This document shows, piece after piece, positions 15,601 through 48,600 of a stretch of DNA of 64,000 bases. Made by a program: the position numbers and the translations under genes. Under the pieces are notes generated by a model. It was not told the origin of the DNA and searched no databases. It was given only the letters and a program-made list of their open reading frames with translations. Position 1 is the stretch's first letter. Every line of letters starts with the position of its first letter. Origin of the DNA: Lytechinus pictus. Its lineage: Eukaryota. The stretch spans positions 28,460,001-28,524,000 of the forward strand of contig NC_087251.1 in the NCBI RefSeq assembly GCF_037042905.1, given 5' to 3'.

Positions 15601-18600
15601 GATCCAGGCACGGTTGCAGATGACCGTCCAGCAGCAACAGAAATACCTTGACACACTGCAGTCATGTCATGATTGGCTCTTGCAGGCTTGGCAGAAAATA
15701 CCGGTGGTGTCGCTGGGGTCAAAGGTCGATACCAGCAGCTTGGAGGATGCAGAACGCCAGGTTGAAGTCCTCAAGGTGATTGGTTGTCATGGTTACCTTT
15801 CATATTCCATAAAATGTATAAGATTTTTGGGGCTGGGGGGAGGGCTAATTAACTAAATCATTATTATTTTTTCACTTCAAAATCAAAACCATAGTCCTGT
15901 TAGTTATAAAGCAACATTCAGATTTTTCATGCTTCATACATCTTCATTATAATGAAAGAAGAAAAATATTGTAAAGAAGGAGAAAATTTATAAAGCATTG
16001 TGATAATTAAAATACTATTGATACTCTGTAATGGATATCATTAAAAACTTTGCAATTCATTTTGGAATTAGAGATTTTTACATGAAACGATGAACAGATT
16101 AAACAATATATTTTTATTTGGGTTTGGGATGAGATATGGTGTACTTTATTTAATTTTCATAATATAAGAAGTACATGTTTGTGTGAAGCATACATCTCTT
16201 TTCTTTCCACTGATATTGCTGTGAAAAGGTATTTGCATGTATCATGTTTGGGTTGTTATGGTTGTGAAGAGTTTAATCAAAATCAAATAATGTATGAAAC
16301 ATTTTCATCTGATCCATTCATTTTACATCAAAGCACCAAAGAGAAAAGGCATTATAGCACTCATTTGTTTCACTTTTGCTGTTTCACAGAAGTGCCCCCC
16401 CCCCCACACACACACACAAATAAATTTGTTGCTCATTCCAAACTGTTTGAAATTTATATAACCACATGGATTCAAGAATAAGCAATTTTTGTATAATGAA
16501 ACCTGTTTGTAGGTGTGTCACATTTTAAGCAAATTCTTAGAGCGAATAATGTATGTTTTCATGTCTACTTGTCAATACACACACTGGATATTGCCACTTA
16601 GAGTACTGTGAATTTAGATAACAAAAAGAATGGAAAATTCTTTGAAAGTGATATATGTTGTGACCCATAACTCTGCAAATGACTTGAACTTGTTCTTGTG
16701 ATGAATAAGATACCTCAAATATTTCCTGGTATTCAATAATGTAGGACTGAATTTCATCTAAATCTAATCTAATTTGACAGAAATAAATTTTTTATTCAAA
16801 TGATTATTGACAACCAGAATGTGTATTAACGTGAACATATTTCAACTTCAGCTGATGCTACTTATGACTCCATCGAGAATCTGATTTAGTGCACGAATAT
16901 GTTCCTGTCGTTTGCAAAGTCATGTATAACCTACAAACAGCATTATGAACGGCCCCCTAGCCTGTTACACTAACATGAAGCTCGATGAGTGATTTGTACA
17001 GTTAATTTGTGTTATTGATCACTCATAATGATCATTGCTATCAATTGTAAAATTTAGCCTTGTTATCCATCAAAAAGCATCATGAAGAAGCCCTAGGTAT
17101 CTAATATATTAATATCACTGCTGTATGGGTATGTAGGGAATCTTGGACACCTCATTGATGCATCGCCAGCTCGTCCAGGCAGCAGAGGAGAGGGTAGAAG
17201 AGAGACCAGGAGACTCCACTACAGCCGCCCTAGCAACCAAAGTAAACAATGAGATTGAGCAAATCATAGAACAGGTAATTACTGGTTCATTCAAAGTCTA
17301 TCATTTTTGTCCAACTATTTGGAAATTTTGATTTAACATTAAAAAAAAACTTCCTTATGCAATTTGGGTTCGTTTTCTGCTTGAAACTTAATTGATGCTT
17401 TAGATTTACATAGTTTTGTCTATCCACGAAATGTAAACAACAATGTTTTGATTTTGGGCTACACTTCATAATTCTTATATGTACGATGATTATTTGATTG
17501 TGTTAAACAGAACAATCAGATGATTTATCAATGTTTTGATGAAAAATGTAAATGAATACTTGGTCTACCCATAGTAAGAAGGTAATCGAATAATGACGAC
17601 ACTGTGACCTATTATTGCAGTTCATCTGGGTGAGTTAAAGAATTAATTTGTTAATGGAAATGATGTTTTTTTACCTTTTCACCTTAGACTGAGAGCCAGC
17701 TTGGTCAGACAGAAGAACAAGTCGATAAATGGTCTCAAGTTGAGAAGACTAAACAGGACTTGACAGATTGGATGGATCAGGTTCAGAAAGCATTGGCTCT
17801 AGAACAAGAGAAACCAGCACAAGTCCAACCTACTGAAGCCAAGAACCTCCTGAAAAATGCAAATGTAAGTTTCTTGGGTGTTCTAATGTTAGCAATATAT
17901 TCCCATGATATATATTCACCTTTGTCTTCTCTCTTTTTATGATGTAATTTTCTCCCAATATGACCTATGTTTTTACAGAGGTTTGCCGAAATTGATCTGA
18001 AATAAGTAAGCTGCAGTAGCTAGGGCAAGGGATTGAACATTTTATGTTGCAGCCACAAAAGGATGGAATAAATTCCCCATTATTCTGAGATCTTATCAAA
18101 ATCACTGTTGCATTGGCATCTTGTACAAAATACTGACTAGGAATCAATCAGAATTGTTATTTTATTTTGCAGTCCATATTGCAAACACTTGTGGTGTAAG
18201 CCTAGGACTGCCACTTTCCACCCTGGGTTAGCAAGACTGGTGTAAGCAAGCACCTGTATAGAACAGGGGTGTGAGAGTTCAGATTTTTATCTGATTTCAG
18301 ATTTTCTTTTGTTTTAATTTTCAGCTTAATTTCAGCTTATTTTTGGCCTTCTTCTGTACAAAAAGTATGGGAGCTCTTTCTATTTCAGACTTTTTCAACA
18401 CTCTTCAGCTTTTTTCAGATCTTTTTATTTGTGACCACTCACACCCCTGATAGATGGACACAAAGTTTTGTTTCTCGTCATCAGTTTTCCTTATTAAAAA
18501 CTACAGGAACCTAACCACAAAGACCACCTGCTTATAATACCACATTTCTTGTCTCTATTAGATGGTTTTTAAATACAAGTTTCACTGTATATTGTCATGA

Positions 18601-21600
18601 ATATTATAGTTTTGTGACACCACCTGTAAGTAACATATTTTATCTTTGGAATCACTAGTCCTTCATCGACGACATCCAGACACACCAGACAGACCTGAAG
18701 AATGTGATCAAGCACAGGGCAGATCTCTGTGACCAGTTAGATCCCGACCTTGATGCATTGAGTGCTGACATAGACACAATCTTGGCATTGGCCAACGATC
18801 TGAAGGCCATACGTACCAAGCAAGTGGCTGATGCGGAGAGGCTGGAGGAAGCAGTGTCAAAGGTCAAGGGTCAGCTTGCCGAGGTCAATGAGATTGTGGA
18901 GAAGGTGGAAAATGACAGAGTTCACACCTGTAGGGAGAAGATTGAGACACTAGAGGTGAGTTACAGAGATAAATGAATGAATTAAAGGGAAGTTCAAATT
19001 TAACGTTGAATCTTCCTGTAAGACTTTATTTGCTTCTAATACCCCTTTCAAGAATTTGCCCTCAAATAGTCCTGATTGAATGCGGATTTGGCAAATGAAA
19101 TTACTGTTAATGAATTCAGAAAGCTTCTGAATATCTATGACCTGAAATCATGTCACATCACTGAGGAAGGCTGCAGTCATTAGCCAAAAATTTTGAGGTA
19201 ACTCTTCAAGATTTATTTTGTGTGTGTTGAGATCAAAAGTTAAAAAATTTATTAAATTCAGAAATAGTCTGTATTATCTTTTAAGAGTGCAGTGAGCTCA
19301 GTACAGCAATGCGGAAATAATTGATGATGATGGTGATGATGATGGGTTTTTGTATACTACTGGTATCCACATCTGCTGGGCGCTCATGGCGCTTGCTCAA
19401 AAATAGGAAATGTCTCACAAATGTCAATGTTTTCAAACAGTGCTTAGAATCATCATTCAGTTCAAATACTGTCTTAGCAGTACTACAATCATTTTATTCT
19501 TGCGATGATGTTGGAATGGGGAACAGAAATGTCTTCAGGTCAAATGACTTTCTCATGCAGCAGCTGCACTATTTGAGAATACCATTAATGAATTAAAAAA
19601 TGAAATGGAGTGCGGATCGAGTCCTAAAATCATGTGAATTAAAAGTGGTTGCTATTATACTGAAGCTGCTTACTGAGACTATTTCCCAGTATTCATGTAT
19701 TTAATATTCTTGTTGCATAGATCTGATAATTTTTTTTCTTTTAGGCAAAGTAATCAAACCCAATTCACCCAGAGCATAATATTTCATTAACATTGGTCAA
19801 AAGTTCAATCCTCTTCTTGTAATGTTGTGTAATAAGACAATAAGAAGACAACATATCTTTATCCAAGGCTCCCCCATTAATGGTTTTCTCCTGAAACCCC
19901 ACCATGATGGGCAATCATTATTCCAATCAATAATGCAGTGTAGTATGATAATGAGATCTTAGCCTTTTAGAGCTTTACAAAGGCCATTCAAATTGAAAGG
20001 TCATGCAACATTACCTCTTGTCAGTTCTTGACTGCACAGATATACTCAGTTACGATTGCCTTCAATGAATTTTATTTCTAGTATTTCCATCAATTAAAAA
20101 AAAATTCTCTTGTATTGATATTTTATTGTTCTTATGTGATTGAACATACTATCGTGTTTACCATGACTCTGCAAAGTGGTACTATATGTATATCTAACAT
20201 AGGTTTGATAATTGTGTCTATATGATTACATAATAAGTCAGTGTATATAGATTATATCTAAGCATACTTTAATTACAAAAGTTGATTGCAATTATTCACA
20301 CCTATATTTTTGGCTTAACAAAGGCTTACTTGAGGAGTATTGATTGTAGTCCATTAATGATAAAAGGAGAGTGGAAAAGCTCATCAATATACATAGAGGT
20401 TCCCAGGAAGAAACTTTGGAAAATATGTGGATATCAAATTTGTTATCGAAACACACAAAGACACACAGATGGGTGAGAGAAAGAAAGGGAGAGATAGAGA
20501 TAAAAAGGTATAGTAAGTGAGTGAAAGATAGAAGGAGATAGTCAGAGAGAGGGATGGGGGGGACAATGGGGTCAGAGTCACAGAGAGCTACATGTAAAAA
20601 AATTGAAAATACACAGCTGCATCTTATCACACTTTCCAATGACTTTTTAGAACAAAACAATAAAAACTAAACAAGAATTGCTCGGTGTACACCTGTACAT
20701 GTACATGTATTAAAGCCCATGATCATACATGTAAATATTAAGAACGACTCCTTTTTTTTCTCCAGATTATAAAGTTTACATGAAAACAATAAGACATTGA
20801 ATTGAAAATACACAGCTGTATCTTATCACACTTTCCAATGACTTTTTAGAACAAAACAATAAAAACTAAACAAGAATGTACAATGCAGAACAATTAATAT
20901 GTCATAAAATAGGCTAGTAATATCAATGGTTTTAAGAAGGAAAGGAATGTGCCCTGGCAGGACACTTGGAAAATCGTTTCCATTATAACTCAAGACCTTG
21001 AGGATCAATAACATCAATTTAGACAACTTTTAATCAATATGCCGCCTTCTATGAGCACTTTCACTCAATAGCCAATCCCTCACCATGCTTTGTTTACTCT
21101 CAGTCCGTCCCTTTATGTGTAGATATCCAGGCTCAGGCATCTAGTCCTATTTACATTCTCTTGCTTCTAACTGGATGTACAAACAATAACAGACTCTACA
21201 AAGAATCTCCCAATTGTGCTATAGATAGCGATGAATAGAGGAGAAGGCGCGCTGTTTCAGTTAGATCATCTTGTTGACACTGCATGTAGTATTAGATGCT
21301 ACCTTATCGCTGCTGCAGTAGTGGCCGTAGGGACAGTCTCCTCAGTGCTATGGGGTCAGAACAGTCCCAAGAAGAGGAGGGGACATCCCCCTCCCCGCTT
21401 GAAAGTCCTGGAGATCATAATGATTTGGATTATACAGCCATGCCTGTTGAAGATGAGCTTGTAGGACCATTGCTGTCAAGGAGAAATTATAGCCAAAGGA
21501 GGAGCAGAAGTTTATCGAAGATTGGTAATGTGGCACCCCCTGACTTGGAGGAAAACCCTAGGAAAAATGTGAAAAATAATGATTCGGTGACTCCCCCTTG

Positions 21601-24600
21601 CTCAGATGAAATTCCTGGAATTAATAATGATGTGGAGCTAAGATTTCATGTTGATCATTATGGAATACCAACCAGGAGAAGTGCAAGCTATATGGATCTT
21701 GAGAATAGCAATGATATTAAGGAATATACTGTCATGCCTCCTGTAGTTCATCCTGGAAGACTATCACGAAGAAGTCTTGGAAATCCTGGGAATCGCAACA
21801 ATGATCAAGAATATACAGTCAAACATGTAGATTATCATGGAAGACCATCAAGAACAAGTCTTGGGAACCCAGGGAATAGTAATAATCATAAGGAATATAC
21901 TGCCAAACCTCTTGCCAATCAGGATACAAGACCATCAAGAAGACATCTTGGACAATACAGCATTGACCGATTAACTCAAAGTGATAAACCGACAATCCTA
22001 ACCTCGGAAAGAAATCCTGTAAGCAGTAATGTTCATACAGTCAAACCTGTTCTAGATCAGCATGGGAGACCATCCAGAACCAGCTTTAGCCAACTGAGAC
22101 AGAGGCAAGGGACACCCCCTGAGTCCTTGGAAAATCCCGGAAATGATATTGATGTGGATCATACAGTCAAACCTCCTGTAGATCAGCATGGTAGACCATC
22201 CAGGATAAGCTTTAGCCAACTAAGGAGGAAGCTGACACCTCCTGCTTCTATGTTAAATCCTGGGAACAGTGATGAAAATGCCAACCATGTCGTGGATCTG
22301 CATAAAAGGCCATTGAGGAGAAGTCTTGGCCAGCTCAGGAGTAGTTGTCTATCTAAGAGTGATGTTAGATTCAGGGTTAGTCTTGCATACTGTGTATATT
22401 CCTGAAGTAATGCATTTTGGTTGTTGGATGAGGATGACGAGTTGATTTTTTCGTTCACATGTGATTTGATTCTTGAGTGAGGGCAAAGAAAATTGAAAAT
22501 GTATTCTATCCTGAGGGAAAAGAAATTATTTACAACATCAGTAGAAAAAGAAAAGTGGGTTATTTGACTGGCAATTTGTAGAAAAGAGAATTTTGTTCTA
22601 TTGTGTACACCAGCTCTTAATGAAGCACTATTGAAATGGGAATTTGAATATGGTGCTTTCTGATCATCGAAAATAATTTATCTAAACAAATGAGAAGTCA
22701 TTCATATCCATATACATGTGATTCCCCTAAGCTTTTCCATTGTTTTTTGGAAGCTAGTAGTTACCTTTTATCAAGTGTTTATGTTGAGGTTGTAAAAGAA
22801 TCTGTAAAATTATTGAATGAATTAAAAAAGATGGAAGAAAAACATTGCATGAATTTATCAACCGTCCCTACTGAATCCCCCCCCCCCCTTATGATTGATT
22901 CTGCTTCCTGAATTAACTGTTAACAGTTACAAAGTAGCCATGCTCCAGTGAATAAAAGGATTAGCACCATCATTACAATGGCTTAGTACCTGCCTTAATC
23001 CCAATTGACATTGTTTAGAAAGATGACTGAAAGAAAAGACAACACTGAGATTATGTAATAAGGTATTGATTTGACATTGTTGTGTGTATTCAAGTGTAAC
23101 TAGGTGGTTTCAGACCGCCTTGAAGTTCGTCAGTTCCAGGTATTCTCTGATCGGGAAATTTACCCCGATCAGAAAATACCAGGTATTTTGGTAATGTGAA
23201 AGCAAACTACGCGTAATATCCCTGAAAGAAAATACCCGCTACATAGTAGGTACTTGGCGAAATTACGAGAACTTTCGTGGGGATTTTTCCAAGGTCGTGG
23301 GTATTTTGGCAATCTGAAAGCAAACTACGGGAACTTGTATCCCATCGATCACCGCGATAAGTGAATTTCCGGTTCATAGCCCGCGCTGTTCGATATGCGA
23401 GGCTACATGTAGCTGATGCGAGGCCTACCAGCAAGCCAGCGCCAGTGCATATGCAGCGATAAAGATACGTACACTTTTCATGCGACGTGACCCGGGGTTT
23501 GACTTTGACTAGGCGGTTGATTGTTTTACGAATTAAGGGTGATATTTACCGATATTCTATATTTTCATACCAGATGACATCGCTCTGGAGTGAAGAGGCC
23601 ACCAAGGCCTTGATTTCAATGTGGAGAGAAATCTAGTGCAATTGCAGATGATCAAGGGAACAAATGATTTGCGCATACGATCGAGTAAAGTTAGTACGTG
23701 CTAGAGCTACGCCGGCCGCAGGCGGATTTCCCGCTCCGGCCGTCCTCCGATCGTACCGCTAAAAGCGTGCGCTTCTTCGTCTGCTACCAGACAGTACTGC
23801 GCATGCTCATAACTTCGAGAAATTTCCCCAAAGAGTGTGTTTCGGGGCGGTCTGAATGCAGGAATAATTATCTAGTATTTTTTAGCATGTAAATGTTCTC
23901 GTAATTTAACGGGGATTCTTGTGATCGAGGCGGTTTGAAACCACCTAAAGAGAGTGAGAAACTAATTGAGGTGAAGGACCAAAATTTCAGAAACTATGAT
24001 ATTGCATAGTAAATATGTATATCAAACCAATTGTATCTAAGTTCTAGCCCTATTTCTTTCAATTTTTAGTTAATTTCCAATACAAGAATGTCTGTATTCA
24101 TTGTAATAGTATTTTTTTTTACTTATACATCATTTTTACGATTTTTTTGTGGATTCTTGATAATCTAAACTCTTTCAGGCTTTAATTAAACTTTTCGCCA
24201 GTGTTTCCTGTACACCAGTAGATGATGAATTGTAATGGTTAACTTGATAATGAAGGTTGTACAACATTTTTATTAGAAAGTGTTCAGTTAGATCTGAAAA
24301 CCTGGGATCATGTCATTGTCAAATTAAATGTTGTCAATTTCTGTCTTTCTCTCTCTCTCTCTCTCTCTTACCTACAGCGGTTATCTATGCCTGAGAGAAG
24401 AAGACATGTTGATGAGGTTGATGAAGCTAGCAGAGAGGTTGGTAGAATGGCTAGCTCACTTGATGAAGATTCCATCAGGAAACAGCTACAGTGAGTATAG
24501 TTCATTTAATCATGTACCGTACTATGCATAACAGTTGAGTTTGGAAACTGTTGATATGCTCCCCAGGGAGTGGAGAAAGTGCATATATTGTGTGTAAGTA

Positions 24601-27600
24601 CATTGTAAAGCACTTCAAGACACCTTTCTGATGTATTAAGCACTATAGAGAAGTATAATATCATTATCATTTTGTTATTATTAACTGTCATCTTTAGAAT
24701 TATCCAGTTATTCATTCAGGGTACCTTAATTACCAAAAGTGGTGGCCTTAATGTGAGATACACATCCAGTATATACAACTTTAGTATATTATCTTGTAAT
24801 ATTGTTTTTTCTCTCTCTATATATATCAATAAAATATGTGTTAAATATGCATTGGTGCTTACATGTAAGCACAACATTTAGTCAGACTAAATGCTTTATG
24901 AAACAACCTACCCCCCTCCCCCCACATGGCCATTTGTTTTACAAATTATATCTGTGATGATGTGTCACAATGAATGAACGTCAATCCTCCACAGTGAAAT
25001 CCGTGAAGAATGGCTGAGCAGTGAGACCCGTATCCAGCGCACGCAAGCCATGTTAGAAGGCTTGGAATCAGACTACAATGCCTTGCTGGAGAAGGGTCAT
25101 CAGTTCAAACTCTGGTTGGATCAGTTCCAGTCGTCCATCGCCAAACCAACCACTATCAGTCCATACACAGAGGAGGTGGATAAGGTTCTACAACAAATCC
25201 AGGTACATCATTTATCATCCCTGAATAAAAAAAAATATTTTGAACTATGATGATAGTCTTTTGTTTTCCTATTTGGAGGAGCAACACCGAAAGACAGTGG
25301 TCTTAGGGTTTTGATACATTCCTAGGGTTTAGGAGATATTGCATTGTAATTGTCAGTCGGACTTGATTGATCTGACTTAATGAAACTTAATTCAAATCAA
25401 TTTCAAGACGATTAGAATACTTTTAAAAGAAGGTGAAGAAGAAGGATTCAGTTATTTCTACATGTTTGTATAAAACATGATCAAGATATATTTTGCAATA
25501 ATTAAAAATAATAATTTAGCCAAAGGAGAGTATAACAGAACATCAATGAATATAATTCTTGACTAATATCCATATTTTTTTTAAACGCAGGATTCCAGTG
25601 TTGAGTTAGCAGGCCGTCGAGCCACATTCAAGGCCGTGAGCGAGGAAGAATCCCTGTGTGATGAATTGAGTCCCAAGGAGAGACAGAGAGTGCGTCAAGA
25701 TCTTCAGCAGATTGACAAGCAACTCACCAAGATTGAACACACTGTCTCCACTACTCAAGATGAATTACAGACATGTGTTAATGAGAGGAAGGTAAGAAAT
25801 AATGATGACAATAATAATAACTATAGTAAGTATATGGGGTAGTTATATTGCACTAATATCCACCTTGTCGGGTAATCGAGGCATTCCTATATTATCCCAG
25901 CTAAGCTGTGGCTACCAATTTAATCGCTCACAGCTTTTTGAGGAATTTCTTCTAGCGGATACCCATTTACCTAACCTCAGTCAAGTGCAGCACAATATTG
26001 ATGAATATCTTGCTGAAGGAAATAAACTCTGTTCATGGGTTAATTTTTTCTTTTAATTCTCTATAGGACTTTGGATATTATTACACTGGCTTTAGCCCAG
26101 CAGCCTTTTACAGCACACAAGCATTTCAAGGAATTCATTTCTGCCATTTTCTTCATGTGGGTTGAGTGTAGATAAATTTCTCAGTTGCCAAAGGACACTA
26201 GTACTGCTGTAGGGATTTGCATCTAGTACCTTGTGGTTCAACACATCATGACACACTGTATCATTATAATTATGTTGATTCTTGTGCAGGAATTCTGGAA
26301 GTACTATTCTGATTGCTTGAAAGGATTACAAACCAAAGAAGAAGATCTCAGTGATCCAGTATTTCCCAAGCTGGATATTCCAGACCAAGTACAGCAGGTC
26401 TTTGAAGCAAAGGTAAGAAAGGCACTTCATCTGTCCAGCTCTTGCAAAAAAACACACTGATCTGAACAAATGCCAGTGTTACTCCTTTCTCCCAACATTG
26501 TTGATACATTTCTCCTTATTTCAATTGATTTCCACATGCCCTCTGCTGATCTAAGGATTGATGTGAATTTGGGTTTCAGATTGTGGTAATGGAGCAGCCC
26601 CTTTAGCAATTCATAATTCAATGATAAAATCACCATGATCAATTGCTAAGTGTGTTTTTTCTTTCATTCAATTTAAACTTTTACAAACTTAAAGGGTACC
26701 TTAAACAAAGGTCCTTCTGCATAAACAACATCAATGGCCATGCATGCCTCTACCTCAAGTCATAGGAACTGCCTAGTTAACAAAACATACAAGTATATAA
26801 TCCTTAGTATTTTATCAGAATGTCCTGTTCAGAAATTGTGAGTAATTTTCATCAGTTGAAAAAAAAAAGATATTACTATGTAGATTCAATGATTGCTTAT
26901 TAGTAAAATTCCCTCTGCTGTAAGAATACAGATCATCTGATTTTTGTTGGCTGTATTTGAGATACAATTGGAAAGGAGGTTGATGTAGATTATTTGTTTT
27001 ATAGGCACTACAAGACCAGGTGAAGAGCTACAACTCTAGGGTGCAATGGTTATCAGCCAGCAGTCGACCAATCTGTAAGAAAGCCGAGGAGAGAGAGAGC
27101 CAGGATGTCCAACAGAAAGTCAGAGGTAAGATGCTTATTCCTATTGAAAGTTGAATCTTGAGAGAAAAAAAAATATCATGAAATGCAAGCATAGTAGCCT
27201 GGAGCATGTTCAGCCACCCAAATTCCACTTCTGTTTTTTTTTTTTTTTAACGTTTGTTCTGCTTTGGATTTTCCATTATAACTTGAGACCCTGTGTACAA
27301 TAAAGTTGCAACCTTTGACATTGAGGTACTGTATCTCTTGCTGTGGAGCAATTCCATACAATATGTACATCCAACCCCTTACATGTGGAACCTTCCTGAA
27401 ATGATTTGTCGCAGTTTTCTGGTTCTTACAAAATTGGTGATGCTCTTAAATGATCTCATGATTATTTAATTATCATGGATTCAGCATTTTTTGAAGTGAA
27501 GTAAGAATGGAGAATAATTGGGATCAGACATGCAAAAGTTGCTTCTTCTATTGAATTGCTCAAAGGATTAAAGTAAGTATCGTTGCCAGAGCATAATACC

Positions 27601-36600: not shown

Positions 36601-39600
36601 GCTCTCACCAGACATGGAGCAAATGACGCTCAATCAACAGCTAGAAAATCAGAAGGTATTGCAACAGAAACTTACTAGGGGTCCATTTCATTTAAGAGTT
36701 ATAACTATGGTAACTTTGCCATTATGGAAACTTTGCTTCCGAAGACGACCACAACATCACTTTGATTGTAACAGGACTTGGCAGCCTATCAAAATCAAGA
36801 TTTCCCTTGTAGTTACAATAATGGCAGTTACCTTAGTTGTACTCTTCATGAAACGGGCACAAGGAGGAGAGCAGGATGGTGCTTTAATCATGTGATGACA
36901 AAAAGGAGGAAAAAGAAGAAATAAATGTAGAGAAGGGATGGCTTGATCATGTAACAAAGCAGTGCATATTTTTTTTATAAAAAGAAATACATTAATTCAC
37001 CTTTGGCTCATTTTGCCTCTTCACTCTAATGAAATACCCTGCTGACTCTTCTACAGGAAATGTTTCATAAATGTCTTGTCAGTGATTTTCCTGGACCAAT
37101 TTGCTCTCTGTCAATCAGATGTAAGGATTTCAATGGCTTTTAATGGTTTTCATTGAAAGTCATTGGGAAGACACACTATGAAATAATCCTGAGAAATTCC
37201 AGATAAATTCCATTTTTAAGATGTCAGTTTACTATTTCATTTCTAAATGATAGGAGGTTCTTGAGAAGTTAGAATCTGCCAGCAAGCGTCTAGCTGACCT
37301 GAACGATACCCACACACTCCTGGCCCCTAACTCATCCGATCAAACAAATGAGCTTGATGGTGATGAGGATGAGGATGATGACACCGAGAAGGAGATCAAA
37401 GATCCTCAGTTGTTAAGCTTACAGGAAAATATCTCCAGGATCAAGGATGTTGCTGTACAGCACGGTGAAGTCCTACAGAAATCTCTTGTGCAACAGGTCA
37501 GTGGTCCTCTACCTCTTTAAGATGAAAAGAAAATGAAATCAATCTCATATATCTGGCTCTAAATATTCAGGATCTACAGTTAATCTAAATGCGGGTAGAA
37601 GTATCTATGATGAATCAATTGATTACTCCATTGATTTGTCTTTGAATGGGGAGTTTCCGCTGTCTTCCATAGTGAATACTATTGTATGAAAGTTGGCAGT
37701 TCTGCATAATGTGTACTGTTATAGATTGACTGTTTGGCCCTAATTTATAAAGGAGGTTTAAACCTCATCCTAGCTCTTTTAAGCATGTGCACACACTGAA
37801 TATGATCAAATTGATTTTCTGTAAAGCCACATATCGATGGTATGCACTCATTCACATTCACTTTAATGCACTTTATGAGTATTGATGTTCTGTACCCTTT
37901 CAGGTTTAATATGAATTGGGACCTTTTTGATTATATCAAAATGTACATATAGAAAGGATTTGTTTTCCCGTCCTTTTGCAGGAAGCGTATGAGAAGCAGT
38001 TGGAAGTACTAGAAGTTAAGTTGCAGACAGCACAAGATGCAATGGCTTCACCGGTAGAACCTACAAGCATGGAACAACTCAAAAAACAAATAGCACAACA
38101 TAAGGTACATCTTGTATTTTGCTACTAGCAAAATTAACCATTTATGTTTGGTACCTGAGCACGTTGCAGATATCCTGATATGCAATCTGACATTAGTTCG
38201 ACTTTTGCACTTCACACTTGATAGATACTGCCATTCCATTTTTATTGGACAGAATATATATTGTGAAAAGTAGATTCAAGTGGTGGATATACTTCCTTTT
38301 TTCATATGAATTAGGTATTGGTGGATTAAATAATTCTCAAGGGATTTTGAATTTGAACATCACAGCAAATACAAACGAGATATTAATTGCGTTTAAATTG
38401 ATCTGATGTTGCCATTGTTGGAAAATATGTCTAAAACAAATATCTCACGCTTATTATTTTCAATTTTCATTTGTTTCAGGAACTTGCAGTGGAAATTCAA
38501 GGATATGAAGATGAGATTCAGGCCATCAATAACAAGACCCAAGAGCTCCAGGAGGAAGCAGCTAAGAGGACAGACTTCAGGCAGACATATCTTTCCACCC
38601 TCACCCCTCCTGGACCACCTATGGTCGCAACTCCAGAGTTTGGTGTTGGTGCTCGTTTAGTGAGGAGAGGTTCACCTATAAGAACTCCATGGAGATCATT
38701 TTCTCCAGAACCTATGCAGACTTCATCACCAGAATCAAAGAGGCCTCATGGTGATCTTGACCTCACTGAAGAGCAGCCTCCAGAGAAAAGGGTTCTTTTT
38801 TATGACGATCCTTCATTAGCAGAAGTACATTATGAATGCCCCAGAGATGAAGTTGACAGTTCACTGGTACCTCCCTCAATGTCAGGTAAAGACAGCAAAA
38901 TGTCAACAGAAGATATGTCAGAGTCACCTAAACAACCTTCAAAGAGATCTTTTGATGATAGCGAACATGAACAGTCACCTAAAATACTTGCCACATCTAC
39001 ACCTAGACCAGGTTCTGCTGACAAACATTTGGATGATTCAGATCCTGAAAAGACTATCTCGTCCAAAGGGTCATCAGACCCTTCTAAACAGGTACCATTT
39101 CAAATTATCACTGACAGGGGGCCTGCATTTGTTCTTCGCCCGGCAGGCTCCAGTTCCATAATTGGACAACCCGGAGAGGATGGAGATGCACCCGGTGGAG
39201 GTGATCATCAAACCCAATATGTCATACAGCAAGCCACACCATATCTTTCTCCTGTTGTTGTTCAGAGGGTGCCCATTACAGAAAGTATTTCACCAATGAT
39301 GGTCATTGATCCAAAAACAGGCAAGACCATGGAGGCTGTACCAACTGACAATGTGGATGATATAGAGAATAAAATAACAGCTTATATGGTTGACCCTGAA
39401 ACAAAAGAATTGGAAATACTTGATCCTGAAAATAAAGTAGCAGTTGTGGCAAAACCTTGTGAAAGTCCAGAGAACGTTCCTTTAGATGAAGTTGTTGTTC
39501 CATTAAAAGTCAAACCTGTAGAATTGGCTCCAGATTTGATGAAGAGTTTTCATACCTCTGGGCCTTATGATCTTGATAGGTACAAGGACCTTGAAGGTAC

Positions 39601-42600
39601 TGATGGTGACAAAGGACAAGCTTCTGTTCAGAGACTGAAAGAGGAAGGTGATGTTGATGGAGGAACAATAGCTGATAGTGCTCATGGAAGTAAAACACTT
39701 CATGTAGGCTTACCTACCAGAGCCCCAACAAAAGACATGATATTGTCACTACCTTCTGATAAAGGACCAGCTGATGTTCGGATTCCTACAGAGCGTGATG
39801 ATACAGATAGTGCTAAAGTATTTGACAATATTGAGAGTGCCAAAGAACCAGCTAACATTCAAAGTGTTAAGAAGGGTTATCAGCCTAGTCTGAACATCGG
39901 GCAACAAGAGGAACAAGATATATCTAAAGAGCCTTCAAGGGACTTACCAGTTACTCAGACATATAGTGGGGAGCAGCCATTGCTCCCATATATGGATGAT
40001 ATGGATGCAGAAATATCCGAATTAGGAAAAAGTAGTAAGAAACCAGTTACTGATCTGCACCAATTGGTAACCACCAAAGGACCTGCATATGAATTGCGAC
40101 CTCTTGACTCAGACTCTAAACCTTCAAATCGTGGAACAGATGGTCTCTCATTTGGAGCCTCTTCAGCAGACCCTGTACCTAAACAGTACACTGTCTCAAA
40201 GACGACTCACTTTGATGGTGTTCCTGAAGTGGTTGGTCATGCTCCTGTGCTCAAGGACCAACGTCCTACACTAATCAAAGACCCATCATCAGACCAGATC
40301 TTAGAAGCTGTTCCTATAGTTGATCCTAATGATTTGAAGAATAAGGTCACCGCATATGTACAGTCTGATCCACAAACAAACACCTTAGAAATTATTGATC
40401 CTCAGCAGGGGCAATCTTATGTGGCCAATGCTGTAGATCCTGAGCAGTTTGATGACAGCACTTCACATTTGACCATGTTGGATGAAGATAAACCAGCTCT
40501 TCAGCTTGAAACAAATAAAGGGCTTGCATATGTATTACATCCACTGAATGAGGAAAAATCACCCATGAAAGACATCTATCCTGCAGGAAAGAAACCTGAA
40601 CAGAAGAATGCTGAATTCACCATTGTTGATGAAGCAAGACCAGCAAATACTGTTCTTGTTACAGGTTCAAGAACATCACCTGGCATCAAGCCAATAGAGA
40701 TCATTGATGAAGTTTCAGGGCAGAAATTTGTTGCAGAACCTGCTACTAATGTTAATGATCTGATGAGCAAGCCCGCACTTTACCTGCCAAAGACAGCATA
40801 TAAGGTCAAATCGGTGGTGATATCTCATCCTGAGACAAAAACAGAAATAGTTGCAATTCCAGCATCAGACCAAAGTGAGAACGACCAACCATCAAATCTT
40901 GGAAGTAGTAATCTTCTTGGTCCAGAAAGAGACCAAACATTCATGAATATTCCTAGTGCTATCACCTTAAAATCAATGAATGTTCCTGTTGTAGATCATC
41001 AATTTGGCCATCCTGATCCAATCAGTAAAGCATCAGCAGTTGTAAGAGAACCCATTACTCATCAAATTGTAACTGATCATGGGCCAGCATATACCCTCAG
41101 GCCTCTTACTGCCGTTGGTGGCCCAGCAGCAGGTGATGATGATCCAGATGTGGATTTTGTCCTAGCCAGCCAAGGACAAACAGATGAACCTCCTGTTGTC
41201 ACTGGGGAACAAGAGCTTGATTCGCTGATTCAACCAATACATATTAAAGATCCAGAATCTGGCCAAGTTATGGTTGCTGAACCCATGACAGATATGAATA
41301 ACCTCAGTGGAGTGCTTGCTGTGATTGATAGTCTTGATGGTAACCCTCAAATGACCATCTATAATCCTACAACAAAGAAGTCTGGTGTAGCACTGCCAAC
41401 AGAGCAATATTGCCCTCCTTCACCAGGAGTGACCCCTTACTTCAAGGAGGATTCAGATTTGACTCCTGATGAATTGGTAACAAAACCAGTTAGCGAAGTT
41501 GGCGAAGTTCTACAACAAAAACCTGTTACTTCAGGACAACAGATTCCAGCACAAGATGTGAATAAGCCTGTGAGGATTGATGATGCCAGAGGCAATATAC
41601 AGGACGGTGACAGCAGCGATGAATCTCCCCATGAAAGAAAAGATTCTGGATGTCCCTTGTTTTCACTGTGTCCTGTTGAATCAACTCCTAAATTAGATTA
41701 TAGGTTAGAGCCATCTCCTGGTGCAATTAATGTTAATGAGAAACATTCAACTGAACATCCTCTTTCATATCTTCATGATGGTTCTGATAAATTTGAAGAA
41801 TTATTGGGTAAGCCTGCTTCCAATCAGGTTTTGACATCGCTCGGACCTGCATACTTCTTGACCCCAGTTGAATCATGTGGAGACAGCAAATTGCAGTCTA
41901 AAGATAATGACAGTGTACCTCTCCTTGTTACAGATCCAAAGCCACTGAACACCCTTCCAGTGGTTGTTGGATGTGAACCATTTCAAAATGGAGGTTTCTT
42001 TGTTGAGGATCCAGTGTCTAAGAATACATTCAAAGCAGAGCCAGTTCACAGCCTAGATGTTTTACATAGTAAACCAACTGTCTTTGTAGATGATCCAAGT
42101 AAACCCGTTCAGATCCATTTTCCAGATGCATCGGTTATACCACCAAATACAAATGCTGATGAAGATGGAGTAAAGAAACTTCAGTCAGATAATTTCCTCA
42201 CTCCATCTCAAACTCCTTCAGGAAAGTCACTTCAACCTGAGTGGGTAAATCAAGACAATGCAGGGCCAGGCAGAGAAGAAAGGGACACACTTTGTCAAAC
42301 AGAACTGGACCATTCCATGCTAGTAGAAGACATGGATAGTGTATTGACTATTGACAGTGGAGCTGATGAGGCAGATAGAGCTCTTGTTCCTCAACCATCA
42401 AAGAAAAACATTCTACCAGGGAAGGTCAAGCATCAACTCATCACTGATATTGGTCCTGCCTTTATCCTTGTTCCTGAAGACAAGTTAGGAAATGGGGGAG
42501 ATGGGGGTGGAGGATCCTCCACTCCTGATGAGTACATATTAGCCACATCTTCAGACCCAGCAAATAAGCCATCAGTGATCGGTTCAAAGCCATTTTCACA

Positions 42601-45600
42601 GAAGGAACCATTTGTGGTCAAGAATCCCAGCACTGGGGAAACTTTCAGGGCTCTCCCTGCAGAAAGCCTCCAAGACCTTCATGAAAATCCATCTCTGTAT
42701 GCCATTGACTCACAAGATGTTCCAAAGGTGAAAGTTTTTGATCCTTCAACTGGCTGCGCATCTGTAGGATTTGGATCAAGGGCACCAGAAGTTAGAACCT
42801 TGTCACCATTATCAGAATTGAATGAAACTCAACCAGTTTCACAGCTTTTGACTAATAAGGGACCAGCGTATGTAATGCATCCATTTGCTGGGGAAGGTTC
42901 AGGTGTGCAAAGTGTCTTATCTAGAGGGAGGATACCTGAACCAGAGAGCACAGATTACACTATTGTTAATGAAGCAAGACCAGCTAATCCGGCTGTTGTG
43001 ACAGGCTCAAGAATGTCAAGTAACATCAAGCCGATAATGATTCTAGATGAAGCCTCAGGGCAGAAATTTGTTGCAGAACCTGCTACTAATGTTAGTGATC
43101 TGATGAGCAAGCCCACACTTTACTGGCCTGAGACGACAGATGTATACAAACCAATGCTGATATTCCATCCTGAGACTAGAACAGAAATAGTTGCACTTCC
43201 GACATCTTGCCCAAGTGAACTTGACAAAAATCAAAATTTTGAAAGTACTAACCTACCCATTACAGGGTCTGCTGTTGAACGAGATGGAGACCAGTCTTCT
43301 AGGGATATACCAAGTGTTATTACCTTGAAAGGTAATAACCAGACTGATAGCCAGACTGATCCAAACAGTCTCTCTGATATATTCCAGAAACCAACTATTT
43401 CACCATCAGAAAGGTTAAATAAACCTGAACGGATAGAAGAAGATTATAACAGGACACCCAACATCGGAAAGGACGCGCCTCATCATATGGGACTACACAG
43501 TTCTGTGACAACATGTGAAATGGATAGCATGTCAGATGACAGTGATGTTGATGAGGAATTTGATGGTCTTGTTCCTCAACTATCAAAGATAAACACGCTC
43601 CCAGGGAAAGTCAGGCATCAGCTAGTCACTGATATTGGTCCAGCCTATACCCTTGTGCCTGAAGACAACTTAAAAAGTGGGAGAGATTGTAGTGGAGGAT
43701 CCTCCACTCCTGATGAGTACATATTAACAGCATCTTCAGACCCAGCAATTAAGCCATCAGTGATTGGTTCAAAACCATTTACACAAGAGGAAAAATGTAT
43801 TGTAAGGAATCCCAGCACGGGAGAAGCCTTCATGGCTGTCCCTGCAGAAAGCCTCCAAGATATTAATGAGAATCCATCTTTGTATGTGCTTGATTCACAA
43901 GATGGTCCGTCGGTGAAGGTCTATGATCCTTCAACTGGCTATGCGTCTACAGCATTTGCGACTACTTTACCAGAAGTGATTGTTACTCCGGAATCACCCC
44001 AGCTAGATAAAATTAGGCCAGTTCCACAGCTGATAACAAATAAAGGACCTGCCTATGTGCTGCAACCTCTCTCTGAAGATACTACAACTCCTCAAGATCT
44101 ATCATCTATTGGGAAGAAACCAGAACATGAGAATGCAGAGTACAAAATTGCAGATGAAGCAAGACCAGCAAATGCTGCTGTTGTGACAGGATCAAGAACT
44201 TCAGCTGGAATCAAGCCAATAGAGATTCTGGATGAAGTTTCAGGACAGAAATTTGTTGCAGAACCTGCCACTAATGTCAATGATCTGATGAGCAAACCCA
44301 CACTTTATCTGCCAGAGGCAGCTGATCTGTCTAAGCCAGTGGTGATTTTCCATCCTAAAGCAAGTACTGAAATAGTTGCATTTCCAACTACACCTCAACC
44401 AAGTGAATTTTCTAAACAACCATTATTTGAAAGCACGTTCCATCCCGATTCTGAGGGTGTTATGGCCCCACGAGATCAGTCTCTAGGTGATATTCCAAGT
44501 GCCATCACCTTGAAATCAATGAATGTTCCTGTTGCAGATCATCAATATAGCCAGCCTGATCCAAACAGTCAAATAACACAAGACATGACAGAACCCATCA
44601 CTCACCAAGTTGTCACTGATCATGGACCAGCATATACCCTGAGACCATTCCCTGAATTTGGGGGACCAGCAGCAGGTGATGATGATCCAGATGTAGATTT
44701 TGTCCTTGCCAGCCAAGGCCAATCGGAAGAGCCTCCTTTAGTGATCGGGGAACAGGAACTGGAATCCCCCATCCAGTCTTTGCATGTTAAAGATCCTGAA
44801 TCTGGTCAAGTTATGGTTGCAGAACCCATGACTGATGTCAATGACCTTACTGGCGTGATGGCCATTGTTGGTAGTGATGATGGTAACCCACAAATGACTA
44901 TCTATAATCCTGCAACAAAGCAGACTGGAGTGGCTGTGCCAGCAGAGCTATATCATCAACCTTCATCAAGAGGAGGTCCTTCCTCCCATGATGATTCAGG
45001 AGTAACTGTGGATAAATCAGTACCAAAGCCATCGACATCAGACCAACAATCTCCTACGCAAGCTGAAAGGGACCCTGCCAAGAGAATGGATGATTCTCCA
45101 AACAAACTCAGCAGTGGTGAATCCACTGATATAGCTTTACATGAAGAAGGTGAATCTGATCCCAAATCAGCAGTTTGTCCCTTGTTTTCACCCATTCCTA
45201 CTAAAATGAATGCATTGGAGTCACCTGCACAGCATAATGTAGCCCCTGAGGATTTGGCTCATGGAAAAGATGAACCTGGTAAACCTGCCTCCATTCAGAT
45301 TTTAACATCCCTCGGACCTGCATATGCCTTGACACCAGTCGAGGAGCTGGTTGAAGCTGGCAAAGTACATTCACCAAGTGACAGGGGACAGCCCAAGAAA
45401 AATGACAAGGCAGATGCTATGCCCTGTATCTTAGCAGATACAGAGCCTCTGAACAATCTTCCAATGGTTGTCGGATCAAGACCAGCACCAGAGGTGAAAA
45501 GTTTCCTCATTGAGGACCCTGTCTCTCAAAAGACATTCAAAGCAGAGCCAGTTCACAGCTTAGATGTTTTACACAATCAGCCAACTGTATTTGTTGTTGA

Positions 45601-48600
45601 TACAAGTAAACCTATTCAGATTCATTTCCCAGATTCATCATCAACAACGCCAAATAAAAACACCAATGGAGATAGGAAAGAGGGATCTCTTTCAGATATT
45701 TTCCAGATACCAACTGAGATTCCATTAGAGAGGTCACTTCAATCAGAAGAGGATATAAAGTTTTATGAAGATGAGTCTAGGGAAGGAGATGAAAGATCTC
45801 ATCAAAGACCTCATTCCACCTTACTGATGCAAAAGAGACACAGTTTATCTAGTGACGACAGTGATGCTAATGAGGAATGTCTTGTTCCTGATCCTCATTC
45901 ATCAAAGCGAAAGGTTGTTCCAGAAATTGTCAAGCATCAGCTCGTCACCGATTTAGGTCCAGCCTATATCCTAGTACCAGAAGACAGTGTTGGATATGGG
46001 GGAGATGGAGGTGGAGGATCCACTTCCCCAGATGAGTACATTCTAGCCACATCTTCGAATCCAGCCAACATGCCATCTGTTATTGGTTCACAGCCATTGT
46101 CACACAACCATCCATGCATTGTCAGGAATCCCACAACAGGAGAGACTTTCAAGGCTGTACCAGCAGAGAGCGTCAAAGATCTGAATGAAAATCCATCTCT
46201 GTATGCCATTGATTCCAAAGATATCCCTGCAGTGAAGGTGTTTGATCCCTCAACCGGTTGTGCATCTATTGGAGTTTCAGAAAGTGTACCAGAAATTGAG
46301 GAACTTGTGAGTGAATCAAGATTAAAACCAGATAAGACACCACTGACATTCAGTTTTCCAGCTACTGAGCCTGCAGTTGACAAGCGCACTAATCAGAATG
46401 ATCAGCAATATGACAGTAATAATGCTCCTCGTCAGTCTCCCGGTGTAAGCGGTGATAGATTATTTCCAGAGAAGAATAGACAAGAAGATGACTCCACTCA
46501 CTCTGATGATGATGTATTTGAGATTGACAAACCAGAACCCTTAGAGCCAAGTGATGAATCAAATTGGGATACTCATACTGCCACAGATGTACCATTTTTA
46601 CTTGGCTGGATGGAAAAGGAAAACAAGAAACCTATACCAGAATCTCAGCTGGATTCCGCATCAGTTACTGCAGGAACTCCTCGATCAGTGCCACCAGTAG
46701 AGCAAATCCTCACTGACAGAGGTGCTGCATATGTTTTGACTCCTGTATCAGAGTTAAATGATCATGGTGGTGCTGCTATTAGTGGATTAGGGGTGACTGG
46801 TGCAACTCCTGGTGCTGGAAGTTCAACTCTTGCCACATCGCCAGACTATATCATTGTAGAGGATACAGAATTGAAGAGATTACCAGTTTTAACGGGCACT
46901 CAGCAAACAAGAGATGTAGCTCCTTTTTTCGTCAGAGATCCAAAGACAGGTCAAGACCTAGCTGCTATTCCAGCCACAGAGCCAGATGACCTGCAAGGTC
47001 TTGTTGGATTTACAGATGATCCTAAGGATGATCCCTTGATGATACAAGATATGCAAACCGGGGAATCGATGATTGCACTTCCAGCATACCGGATCCCTGA
47101 TGAACTAGGACAGGCTCAGTCACTCCCACCCAGGGATTCAGGCTTTTACTCGGGACCAAGCAGTATGGCAGTTACTGATGCAACATTGAAGGATACTACT
47201 GATTCAGATGATAGTTCGGTAGATTCTCTTCCTCACCATTCCAAATCAGACATACCACATTCATCTGAATATGCTGAAGTGCCACTGAAGAATTTACCAA
47301 GCATAGAGGATGTTCCAGATGAACACTATCACACTGATTCCACTGACTTTTACACTCCTGATGGATCACCAGTTCCATGGCAGGCAAAACACAAATCAGC
47401 TCCACAAGATCTTGACCTTCAAGTCTCATTGCCAGATGAACGTAAATATGAACCCGTTGTTTCTGCTGCTGATCTCCTAGATCAAACACTGCAGATTCAA
47501 CCTGTTGTAGTTTTGCAGAAGGATTCATCACCCACTGAAGAGACTCCCGGTTTGATGGAAAAGGATAACCATCAAGGCACAACTAATAAAAGTCCTGCAG
47601 AAGCTAAAGACACATCTTCAAAAACAGTGAATGCTTCTGCAGATGATGAGCCAAAAACATTGTCACAGGATATGCCACTTCCTGTTATATGCCATGAGGG
47701 CTTGATGGGAGATGTGAAGGATCCTTCTGCACCAGATGGTAAAGCACAGAAGATAGACCAACTCAATCGCTCATGGGATGCTCTACAACATAAGGTAAAT
47801 TTGATTAAACTGCAAATTTAATATATGAATAAATTAAGTTAACTTTATAGCAAATATAAAATTGTAAGTTTGTGTAAAGGAAAACAAGACTTTGAACTAT
47901 TTTGGAAAGTTTACAGCACTATCATGCATTCTTTGGTTTTAAAAGTTTTGCCAGTAATATGATTGATATTACAGTATGTCAATGAACTTGTGACAGTTTT
48001 TGATACTTGCATTGAATGTTTGGTTTTCCATCAAAGTTTAGAATAAATATGCCATTAAGATTAAGTATTCTTTGACAATCCTTGGTGGAATGAGAATAAT
48101 GGATCATAGTTATAAAATGGTGATGGACCTTACTGAGGTATTATTGTGGGTTCAAAAGTTTTTGGTCTTACCAGCTGGTCAAATAGCAAATAAATTTCTG
48201 TAAAATTACTACTCAGATTGATAAATTTGCAATGATATTTGGCGCATTTGCAACCAAACTATGTTGGTAGGTTCTCTCAGTCACCACATTTTAATGTTTT
48301 TCAGGTTCAAAGAGCACCATGAAATCAATTTAGAATAAATTAACATTACTGAGAATAAGTGTTTGCAAAAGGCGATACACATTTTTTCTTTCCCATGTAT
48401 GTTTTATGTTATATAGATGGAGGAGAAGGAGCGTCTCCTGAAAGAGGCTTTAGCCAAGCAGGAGGATTACCAGAATGCCTTGTCTCAGATCAACATTCGA
48501 CTTGCTAACACGGAAGCTCATCTCAAAGAGATCAAAGACACTCCCATGGAGGCTCGTAACCTTGATGAACATATCCTAGAACTCAAGGTTGGCATATTTC

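Follow-up and report, generated by a model that had tools for sequence, protein, structure and literature searches.

A repeat-rich candidate first exon with a predicted N-myristoylation signal in an intron of a nesprin-type gene

We analyzed a window of 64,000 nucleotides from Lytechinus pictus (G000:C7:28460001–28524000; positions below are counted from its first letter unless C7 is named) and found that a nesprin-1/2-type gene crossing it carries a spliced, coding-constrained and conserved exon inside the 5,422-nucleotide intron between exons 20 and 21, these exon numbers being counts inside the window, with further exons, including one for the CH (actin-binding) domain, lying upstream of it. 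We give a probability of about 0.72 to the reading that this is a real coding alternative first exon expressed from an internal promoter, an estimate that covers the exon and its promoter and excludes the lipid anchor considered below. In the proposed mechanism, transcription would begin within the 5.4-kb intron, either at 21134 or a little upstream of it, the exon would run to 22375, and its transcript would then be spliced to the common exon at 24378, giving a product that would lack the CH end and the upstream spectrin-like exons. The replacement N-terminus would comprise 342 residues (360 if the ATG at 21296 were used), with six clear diverged repeats and a looser seventh. Initiation at 21350 followed by removal of Met1, N-myristoylation of Gly2 and continuation of the transcript to the KASH exon would make this product a lipid-anchored nesprin. 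A preliminary description of the same DNA had proposed a 342-codon frame starting MGSEQS in good context and ending at a phase-0 donor that fits exon 21, and our coordinates, phases and motifs all match it.

For the RNA comparison, four sequencing runs were placed on 17000–25400; X1 comes from organism A, about 6% diverged from the window, and X14 and X15 come from organism B, which bears the window's species label. A 1,880-letter contig of X1 (record 4) aligned to 21269–22375, then to 24384–24490, then to 24995–25203, and continued for 463 letters more. The six unplaced letters between its first two pieces are the exact number required for 24378–24383, and the join 22375>24378 was read from the table of contig pieces, being absent from the joint table. 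X1 contains spliced RNA, because its joins 17864>18659 and 24490>24995 both have GT..AG ends; the second of these, crossed by two reads each in X14 and X15, sets the end of exon 21 at 24490 and not at about 24487. The alternative exon is transcribed and spliced at its predicted donor, 22375, into exon 21, as the preliminary description had expected, and no stop interrupts the frame through the next two exons, whether the exon is joined as a first exon or as a cassette. Reads at 24334–24378 were skipped as repeat, so that junction reads into exon 21 may be hidden there; a (TC)n microsatellite at 24338–24368 forms the polypyrimidine tract of the exon-21 acceptor.

Stranded raw reads of organism B also matched the alternative exon, sharing the strand of exon 20. 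Across its four bins the X15 depths were 0.92, 1.79, 0.02 and 0.98, and the exon-20 bin had 3.06; of the four bins, X14 covered only the first, at a depth of 0.92. Depth was zero for both runs in the flanking intron bins 19529–21214 and 22339–22900, and no read start places were listed at the alternative exon for their sparse raw reads. No RNA run was indexed for the alternative exon; the RNA evidence came from the runs placed on the window. A further run, X12, which may be either RNA or DNA, was not used; it was identical to the window, covered 20557–20849 and 21102–22375 in patches with one contig ending exactly at 22375, and had nothing on exons 20 and 22.

The preliminary description had also called for an internal promoter, and the RNA fits one. 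X1 contigs are continuous with the genome from at least 21134, record 3 covering 21134–21297 unspliced, with a single differing letter and, behind 21250, an inserted GCT, and a start downstream of 21350 was not seen. Because the RNA leads into the exon unspliced, from 21134 at the latest, and X1 has no cover further up the intron (depth 0 over 19529–20933), an internal promoter is supported. The leader differs between organism A and the window by three substitutions and one 3-nucleotide insertion in 216 nucleotides, and the coding part by about 6%; this conservation of the leader suggests regulatory constraint on the 5′ untranslated region or on the promoter. CCAAT pentamers at about 21073 and about 21210 were considered as promoter elements and set aside as too common by chance. 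A 78-nucleotide direct repeat, 99% identical and 199 nucleotides apart (20601–20678 and 20800–20877), lies roughly 0.3–0.5 kb upstream of the leader, where the X12 contig on 20557–20849 also falls. An 11-nucleotide match, ATGGGGTCAGA, at about 20565 was tried as a duplicated start and rejected, its score lying within those of shuffles (22, against a maximum of 27).

The same stretch could instead be a cassette exon of 1,080 nucleotides, 21296–22375, spliced into the giant CH-to-KASH isoform behind exon 20 and before exon 21, in which case MGSEQS would be internal and unrelated to lipidation. The preliminary description had allowed for such a cassette when it pointed to an in-frame ATG at 21296 behind a weak tag acceptor. 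The cassette would be stop-free and in frame on both sides, and both of the organism A differences in 21296–21349 are synonymous. The X1 assembly also breaks at 21269–21297 with a depth step from 7.0 to 9.0, and record 2 of X1 stops aligning exactly at 18955, the end of exon 20, leaving 22 unplaced letters. However, the X1 contigs continue through 21296 into genomic sequence, up to 21134. No 18955>21296 joint occurs among those listed (two were not shown), although joints with sides of 20–28 letters were listed, and organism A is identical to the window over 21296–21324. An AG at 21288–21289 lies 5 nucleotides upstream of the acceptor AG, and its use would include the TAG at 21293. The X1 word depth of the alternative exon, a rough measure, is about 9 and exceeds the 3.1–3.7 of the contigs of two upstream exons, exon 20 included, and the frame of a relative, P0001, is called from MGSEQS. 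We consider the cassette unlikely, and a first exon likely in comparison with it.

The open frame itself exceeds chance. It runs stop to stop from 21296 to 22405 on the forward strand (369 codons), its 5′ side being closed by an in-frame TAG at 21293–21295, whereas 300 dinucleotide-preserving shuffles of the intron gave longest frames of 109 codons on average and 205 at most, so that none of the 300 attained the observed length. Codon-usage log-odds, with the gene's 9.3-kb exon as the training set and intron trinucleotides as the background, gave +106 bits in the proposed frame and −92 to −279 in the other five. In the exon, the comparison of organism A with the window showed 14 gap letters, made up of four 3-nucleotide deletions (21417, 21622, 21946 and 22146) and a −1/+1 pair at 21542 and 21546, 4 nucleotides apart, and the reading frame is kept throughout. 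The alternative exon is single copy in the 812-Mb assembly and is therefore not a mobile element.

These results bear on the view that the stretch is no functional coding exon and represents a frame open by chance, a repeat or mobile element turned into an exon, or intronic RNA that yields no product. In keeping with that view, the sequence is low-complexity and repetitive, and it has no Pfam family, no ESM Atlas look-alike and no annotated protein relative. Against it stand the shuffles and the coding-like codon usage in one frame only, the single genomic copy, the preservation of frame by every indel of organism A, the in-frame splice to the downstream exons, and the conservation of start and end in P0001. 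Taken together, this reading is already largely refuted, and we regard it as very improbable.

A HMMER search of 1.84 billion representative proteins yielded one true relative, P0001, a 63-residue frame on a 932-nucleotide assembly contig, which adds a third source to the window and organism A. P0001 has the MGSEQS start, one repeat unit and the end ...RRSLGQLRSS-LSKSDV(K/R)FR, followed by V-S, which is the GT donor read through. In this alignment, the conserved core is the MGSEQS start, one repeat unit and the last ~20 residues, and the number of repeats has expanded in the present lineage. A second HMMER match, P0002 (E 6.6e-5, 28% identity), is a repeat-rich protein and was judged spurious. 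Word-index searches found no relative of the exon among proteins of 600–2,000 residues and, with P0001 as query, only P0001 itself; the protein sets were clustered at 50% and 90% identity, which hides isoforms. Metagenome contigs scanned with the alignment of the exon and P0001 gave 71 pattern matches, none of which was confirmed.

The 342 residues are rich in Ser, Pro, Arg and Asn, and 71% of the residues encoded by the alternative exon are disorder-promoting, so that the N-terminal region is probably disordered. The unit consensus is about NPGN-x3-(D/E)(Y/H)T(V/A)KP-x-(V/L)DQHGRPSR(R/T)S(L/F), and the looser seventh unit lies at residues 16–50. At the DNA level the copies are 61–88% alike, with spacings of 171, 138, 126, 114 and 84 nucleotides, all multiples of 3. 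The Arg-Ser clusters of the units look like candidate basophilic-kinase or docking sites. Searches returned no Pfam family and no usable ESM Atlas match for the alternative exon, no match in the PDB for its first 40 residues, and no Rfam match in the window.

The ATG at 21350 lies in a strong context (gctATGg, with a purine at −3 and G at +4). The encoded start, M-G-S-E-Q-S, has Gly2 and Ser6 and neither Pro nor an aromatic residue at position 3, and it fits the N-myristoylation consensus that we took for comparison from excerpts of PMC8358657, as the preliminary description had stated for MGxxxS. That description had named loss of Gly2 or Ser6 in orthologs as one observation that would count against it; both residues are kept in P0001 and in organism A, for which no difference is listed in 21350–21369, leaving MGSEQS unchanged.

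Several observations weigh against the reading of a first exon with a myristoylated start. The label of X1 as RNA was a guess, and its RNA nature rests on the three exon–exon joins that it contains; X14 and X15 were each sampled to about 6%, and their cover of the exon is a handful of reads. The 5′ limit of 21134 is the end of a contig in another organism's assembly and not a mapped start site, and the X1 contigs abut at 21269–21297 with depths of 7.0 and 9.0, where a branch could hide a second 5′ form. Nine of 17 listed organism A substitutions are synonymous, these 17 being part of 65 differences in the X1 contig piece, so that the conservation of the rest is unseen; in 21350–21572, where the list seems complete, five changes are synonymous and nine are non-synonymous. 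Constraint on the residues seems modest, as expected for disordered sequence. The leader contains other ATGs, at 21175 (4 codons), 21231 (a 77-codon frame running past 21350) and 21284 (ATG-TAG); that at 21231 has a purine at −3 and a frame overlapping the main start, although the residues of this frame are without coding-type conservation. A scanning ribosome would also meet the in-frame ATG at 21296 before that at 21350, and the two organism A differences in 21296–21349 (21325 and 21328), both synonymous in the main frame, weakly suggest that this stretch is translated. With translation from 21296, Gly20 would be internal and so no substrate of N-myristoyltransferase. Residues 1–30 are acidic and have no Lys, Arg or Cys, so that no second membrane signal accompanies the putative myristate. 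In the two-signal view, myristate alone binds membranes weakly, and a myristate at this N-terminus would likewise be expected to bind weakly because Lys, Arg and Cys are missing from residues 1–30. In addition, Gln before Ser lies outside the preferred set in the excerpts of PMC8358657.

A first exon translated from 21296 (MLPYRCC...) is the competing form of the isoform, and its N-terminus would be no myristoylation substrate. This ATG is the first in frame after the TAG at 21293, and organism A retains it together with the full set of 18 codons, altered only by the two synonymous changes. Against it, the ATG stands directly behind ...tattag in a weak context (T at −3, C at +4), whereas that of 21350 is strong; codon log-odds over 21296–21349 are uninformative (−2.6, 2.1 and −9.5 in three frames); the entire leader is unusually conserved, so that the silent changes may reflect constraint at the nucleotide level; and the frame of P0001 begins MGSEQS. 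The Cys-Cys beside Arg in MLPYRCC might be S-acylated instead. Weighing both sides, we lean slightly toward translation from 21350 and consider the start at 21296 a minority possibility, rather unlikely but of real weight. Given a start at 21350, myristoylation of Gly2 is quite probable on the motif; as a whole, the predicted myristoylated isoform is tentative, a little short of even odds.

Table 1. Positions and strand of the alternative exon, its parts and the neighboring exons in the window.
Feature	Position	Strand	Evidence or detail
Upstream constitutive exon (exon 20)	18659..18955	+	phase-0 end, donor GAG|gtgagt
Minimum transcribed 5′ leader of the alternative exon	21134..21349	+	X1 contigs unspliced through the stretch
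Optional 18-codon N-terminal extension, MLPYRCC...	21296..21349	+	in the cassette reading, also the 5′ end of that exon
ATG and GSEQS codons, candidate N-myristoylation signal	21350..21367	+	sequence
Candidate alternative first exon, coding part, 342 codons	21350..22375	+	donor AGG|gttagt, phase 0
Six clear tandem repeat units, 28–31 codons each (residues 115–331)	21692..22342	+	unit alignment with P0001
Intron between the alternative exon and exon 21	22376..24377	+	X1 contig pieces
Common exon (exon 21)	24378..24490	+	phase-0 start; end from joint 24490>24995
Next common exon	24995..25203	+	in the same X1 contig; joint 24490>24995

The host is a single-copy nesprin-1/2-type gene of an animal, with a CH exon on the 5′ side of the window and a KASH exon on its 3′ side, both on the strand of the alternative exon; the latter sits 3′ of the actin-binding end, and KASH follows it after about 117 kb. 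The KASH exon (PF10541, 100.5 bits, cut-off 23) is at C7:28598853–28599026 on the forward strand, 75 kb past the window end. Its frame terminates in ...PMLRYTNGPPPI-stop, that is, PPPI-stop, of the PPPX type, and its best match among solved chains is the KASH of human nesprin-1 (6r15_B, E 6.6e-14). One CH match was found (PF00307, 41.6 bits, cut-off 26), at C7:28419529–28419723 on the forward strand, 40 kb 5′ of the window. Between them, four of six neighboring exon frames matched PF25034 (nesprin-1 spectrin repeats) and a fifth matched PF00435 and PF24611, the spectrin-type matches scoring 14.5–18.5 bits, under the curated cut-offs, as expected when single exons are scored. The host is assigned to the nesprin-1/2 type because of the KASH exon downstream, the CH exon upstream and the weak nesprin-type spectrin matches between them, and the nesprin host with an actin-binding N-terminus assumed in the preliminary description is supported by the CH and KASH exons. 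A nested independent gene was considered and rejected, the exon being spliced into nesprin exons.

Other features of the locus were recorded alongside. PF10541 matched once in the 812-Mb assembly (33 candidates scored), which suggests an animal with one model-detectable nesprin-1/2-type KASH gene. A single exon-like open frame of 9.3 kb, about 3,100 codons, occupies 38480–47793 (open over 38435–47821) in the same gene, between the acceptor ...tttcag|GAACTT and the end AAG|gtaaat. Pro, Ser and Asp are abundant in it, and 66% of its residues are disorder-promoting, which is odd for a nesprin rod. At E ≤ 0.1 this exon matched no Pfam family; tandem repeats were absent from its DNA, and a word-index search with 1,600 of its residues found no relative among proteins of 2,801–5,000 residues. 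Three intronic stretches, 18264–18449, 23101–23950 and 24549–24591, reached word depths of thousands in every one of the four runs, on both strands and with low-agreement loose ends; they appear to be high-copy dispersed repeats that are present in RNA too.

Nesprins are viewed as links between nucleus and cytoskeleton, and many of their short isoforms are poorly characterized. With its RNA support, its conservation in three sources and its clean N-terminal motif, the exon described here offers a concrete example of a nesprin isoform that might attach at its far end to something other than actin, either a membrane or some other partner. If KASH is kept, the product could be a lipid-anchored giant KASH protein with its C-terminus in the outer nuclear membrane, acting as a filament-free tether between an organelle and the nucleus, with the myristoylated N-terminus and the HGRPSR(R/T)S(L/F) array binding a second membrane or a multivalent, phosphorylation-controlled partner; we think this improbable. 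To our knowledge, a direct organelle-to-nucleus tether without a cytoskeletal filament has been shown for no nesprin. The one-repeat relative and the six-plus-one-repeat version form a natural series for probing the role of the repeats. If myristoylation fails, the exon would simply lengthen the known list of nesprin isoforms made from internal promoters.

Among known systems, the host resembles the giant SYNE1/SYNE2-type nesprins in its upstream CH exon, its spectrin-like exons and its KASH ending in PPPX, and differs from giant nesprin-1 and nesprin-2 in that this genome has one KASH match and in its 9.3-kb Pro/Ser/Asp-rich exon without a Pfam match. For the start, the comparison is with BORCS5 (myrlysin, a myristoylated subunit of BORC, the complex that positions lysosomes), which we take to share these six first residues and to turn acidic after them; our searches did not confirm this, and a text search of the literature for the hexapeptide returned one unrelated paper. 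According to the Borcs5 literature, one isoform is regarded as myristoylated, and a non-myristoylated isoform still reached late endosomes. We claim no homology to BORCS5 beyond the start; the first 40 residues of the exon had no PDB match.

The closest precedent is in nesprins themselves. The preliminary description knew of no such membrane tether among them, but its view that nothing of this kind is known was not right: Rajgor et al. (2012; PMC3388047), in the excerpts available, report internal starts with unique N-terminal peptides in nesprin-1 and nesprin-2, and for one internal-start variant, p931KASH-Nesp1, they point to a potential site of N-myristoylation at its N-terminus. Among the matches listed for nesprin or KASH together with myristoylation, judged by their titles, no experimentally lipidated nesprin was apparent. 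The idea of a lipid-anchored nesprin is thus already in print, and, as far as our searches reach, what is new is the exon, with its array of repeats and a start conserved between species. As those excerpts describe p931KASH-Nesp1 and the other internal-start nesprin variants, they share with the isoform proposed here a start inside a giant gene, an otherwise intronic 5′ end and a unique N-terminal peptide. On the same source, p931KASH-Nesp1 belongs to a human gene, contains KASH and has its site by motif-scan prediction only, whereas the exon described here encodes 342 residues of tandem repeats, for which no annotated-protein relative was found, and its MG...S start is kept in three sources.

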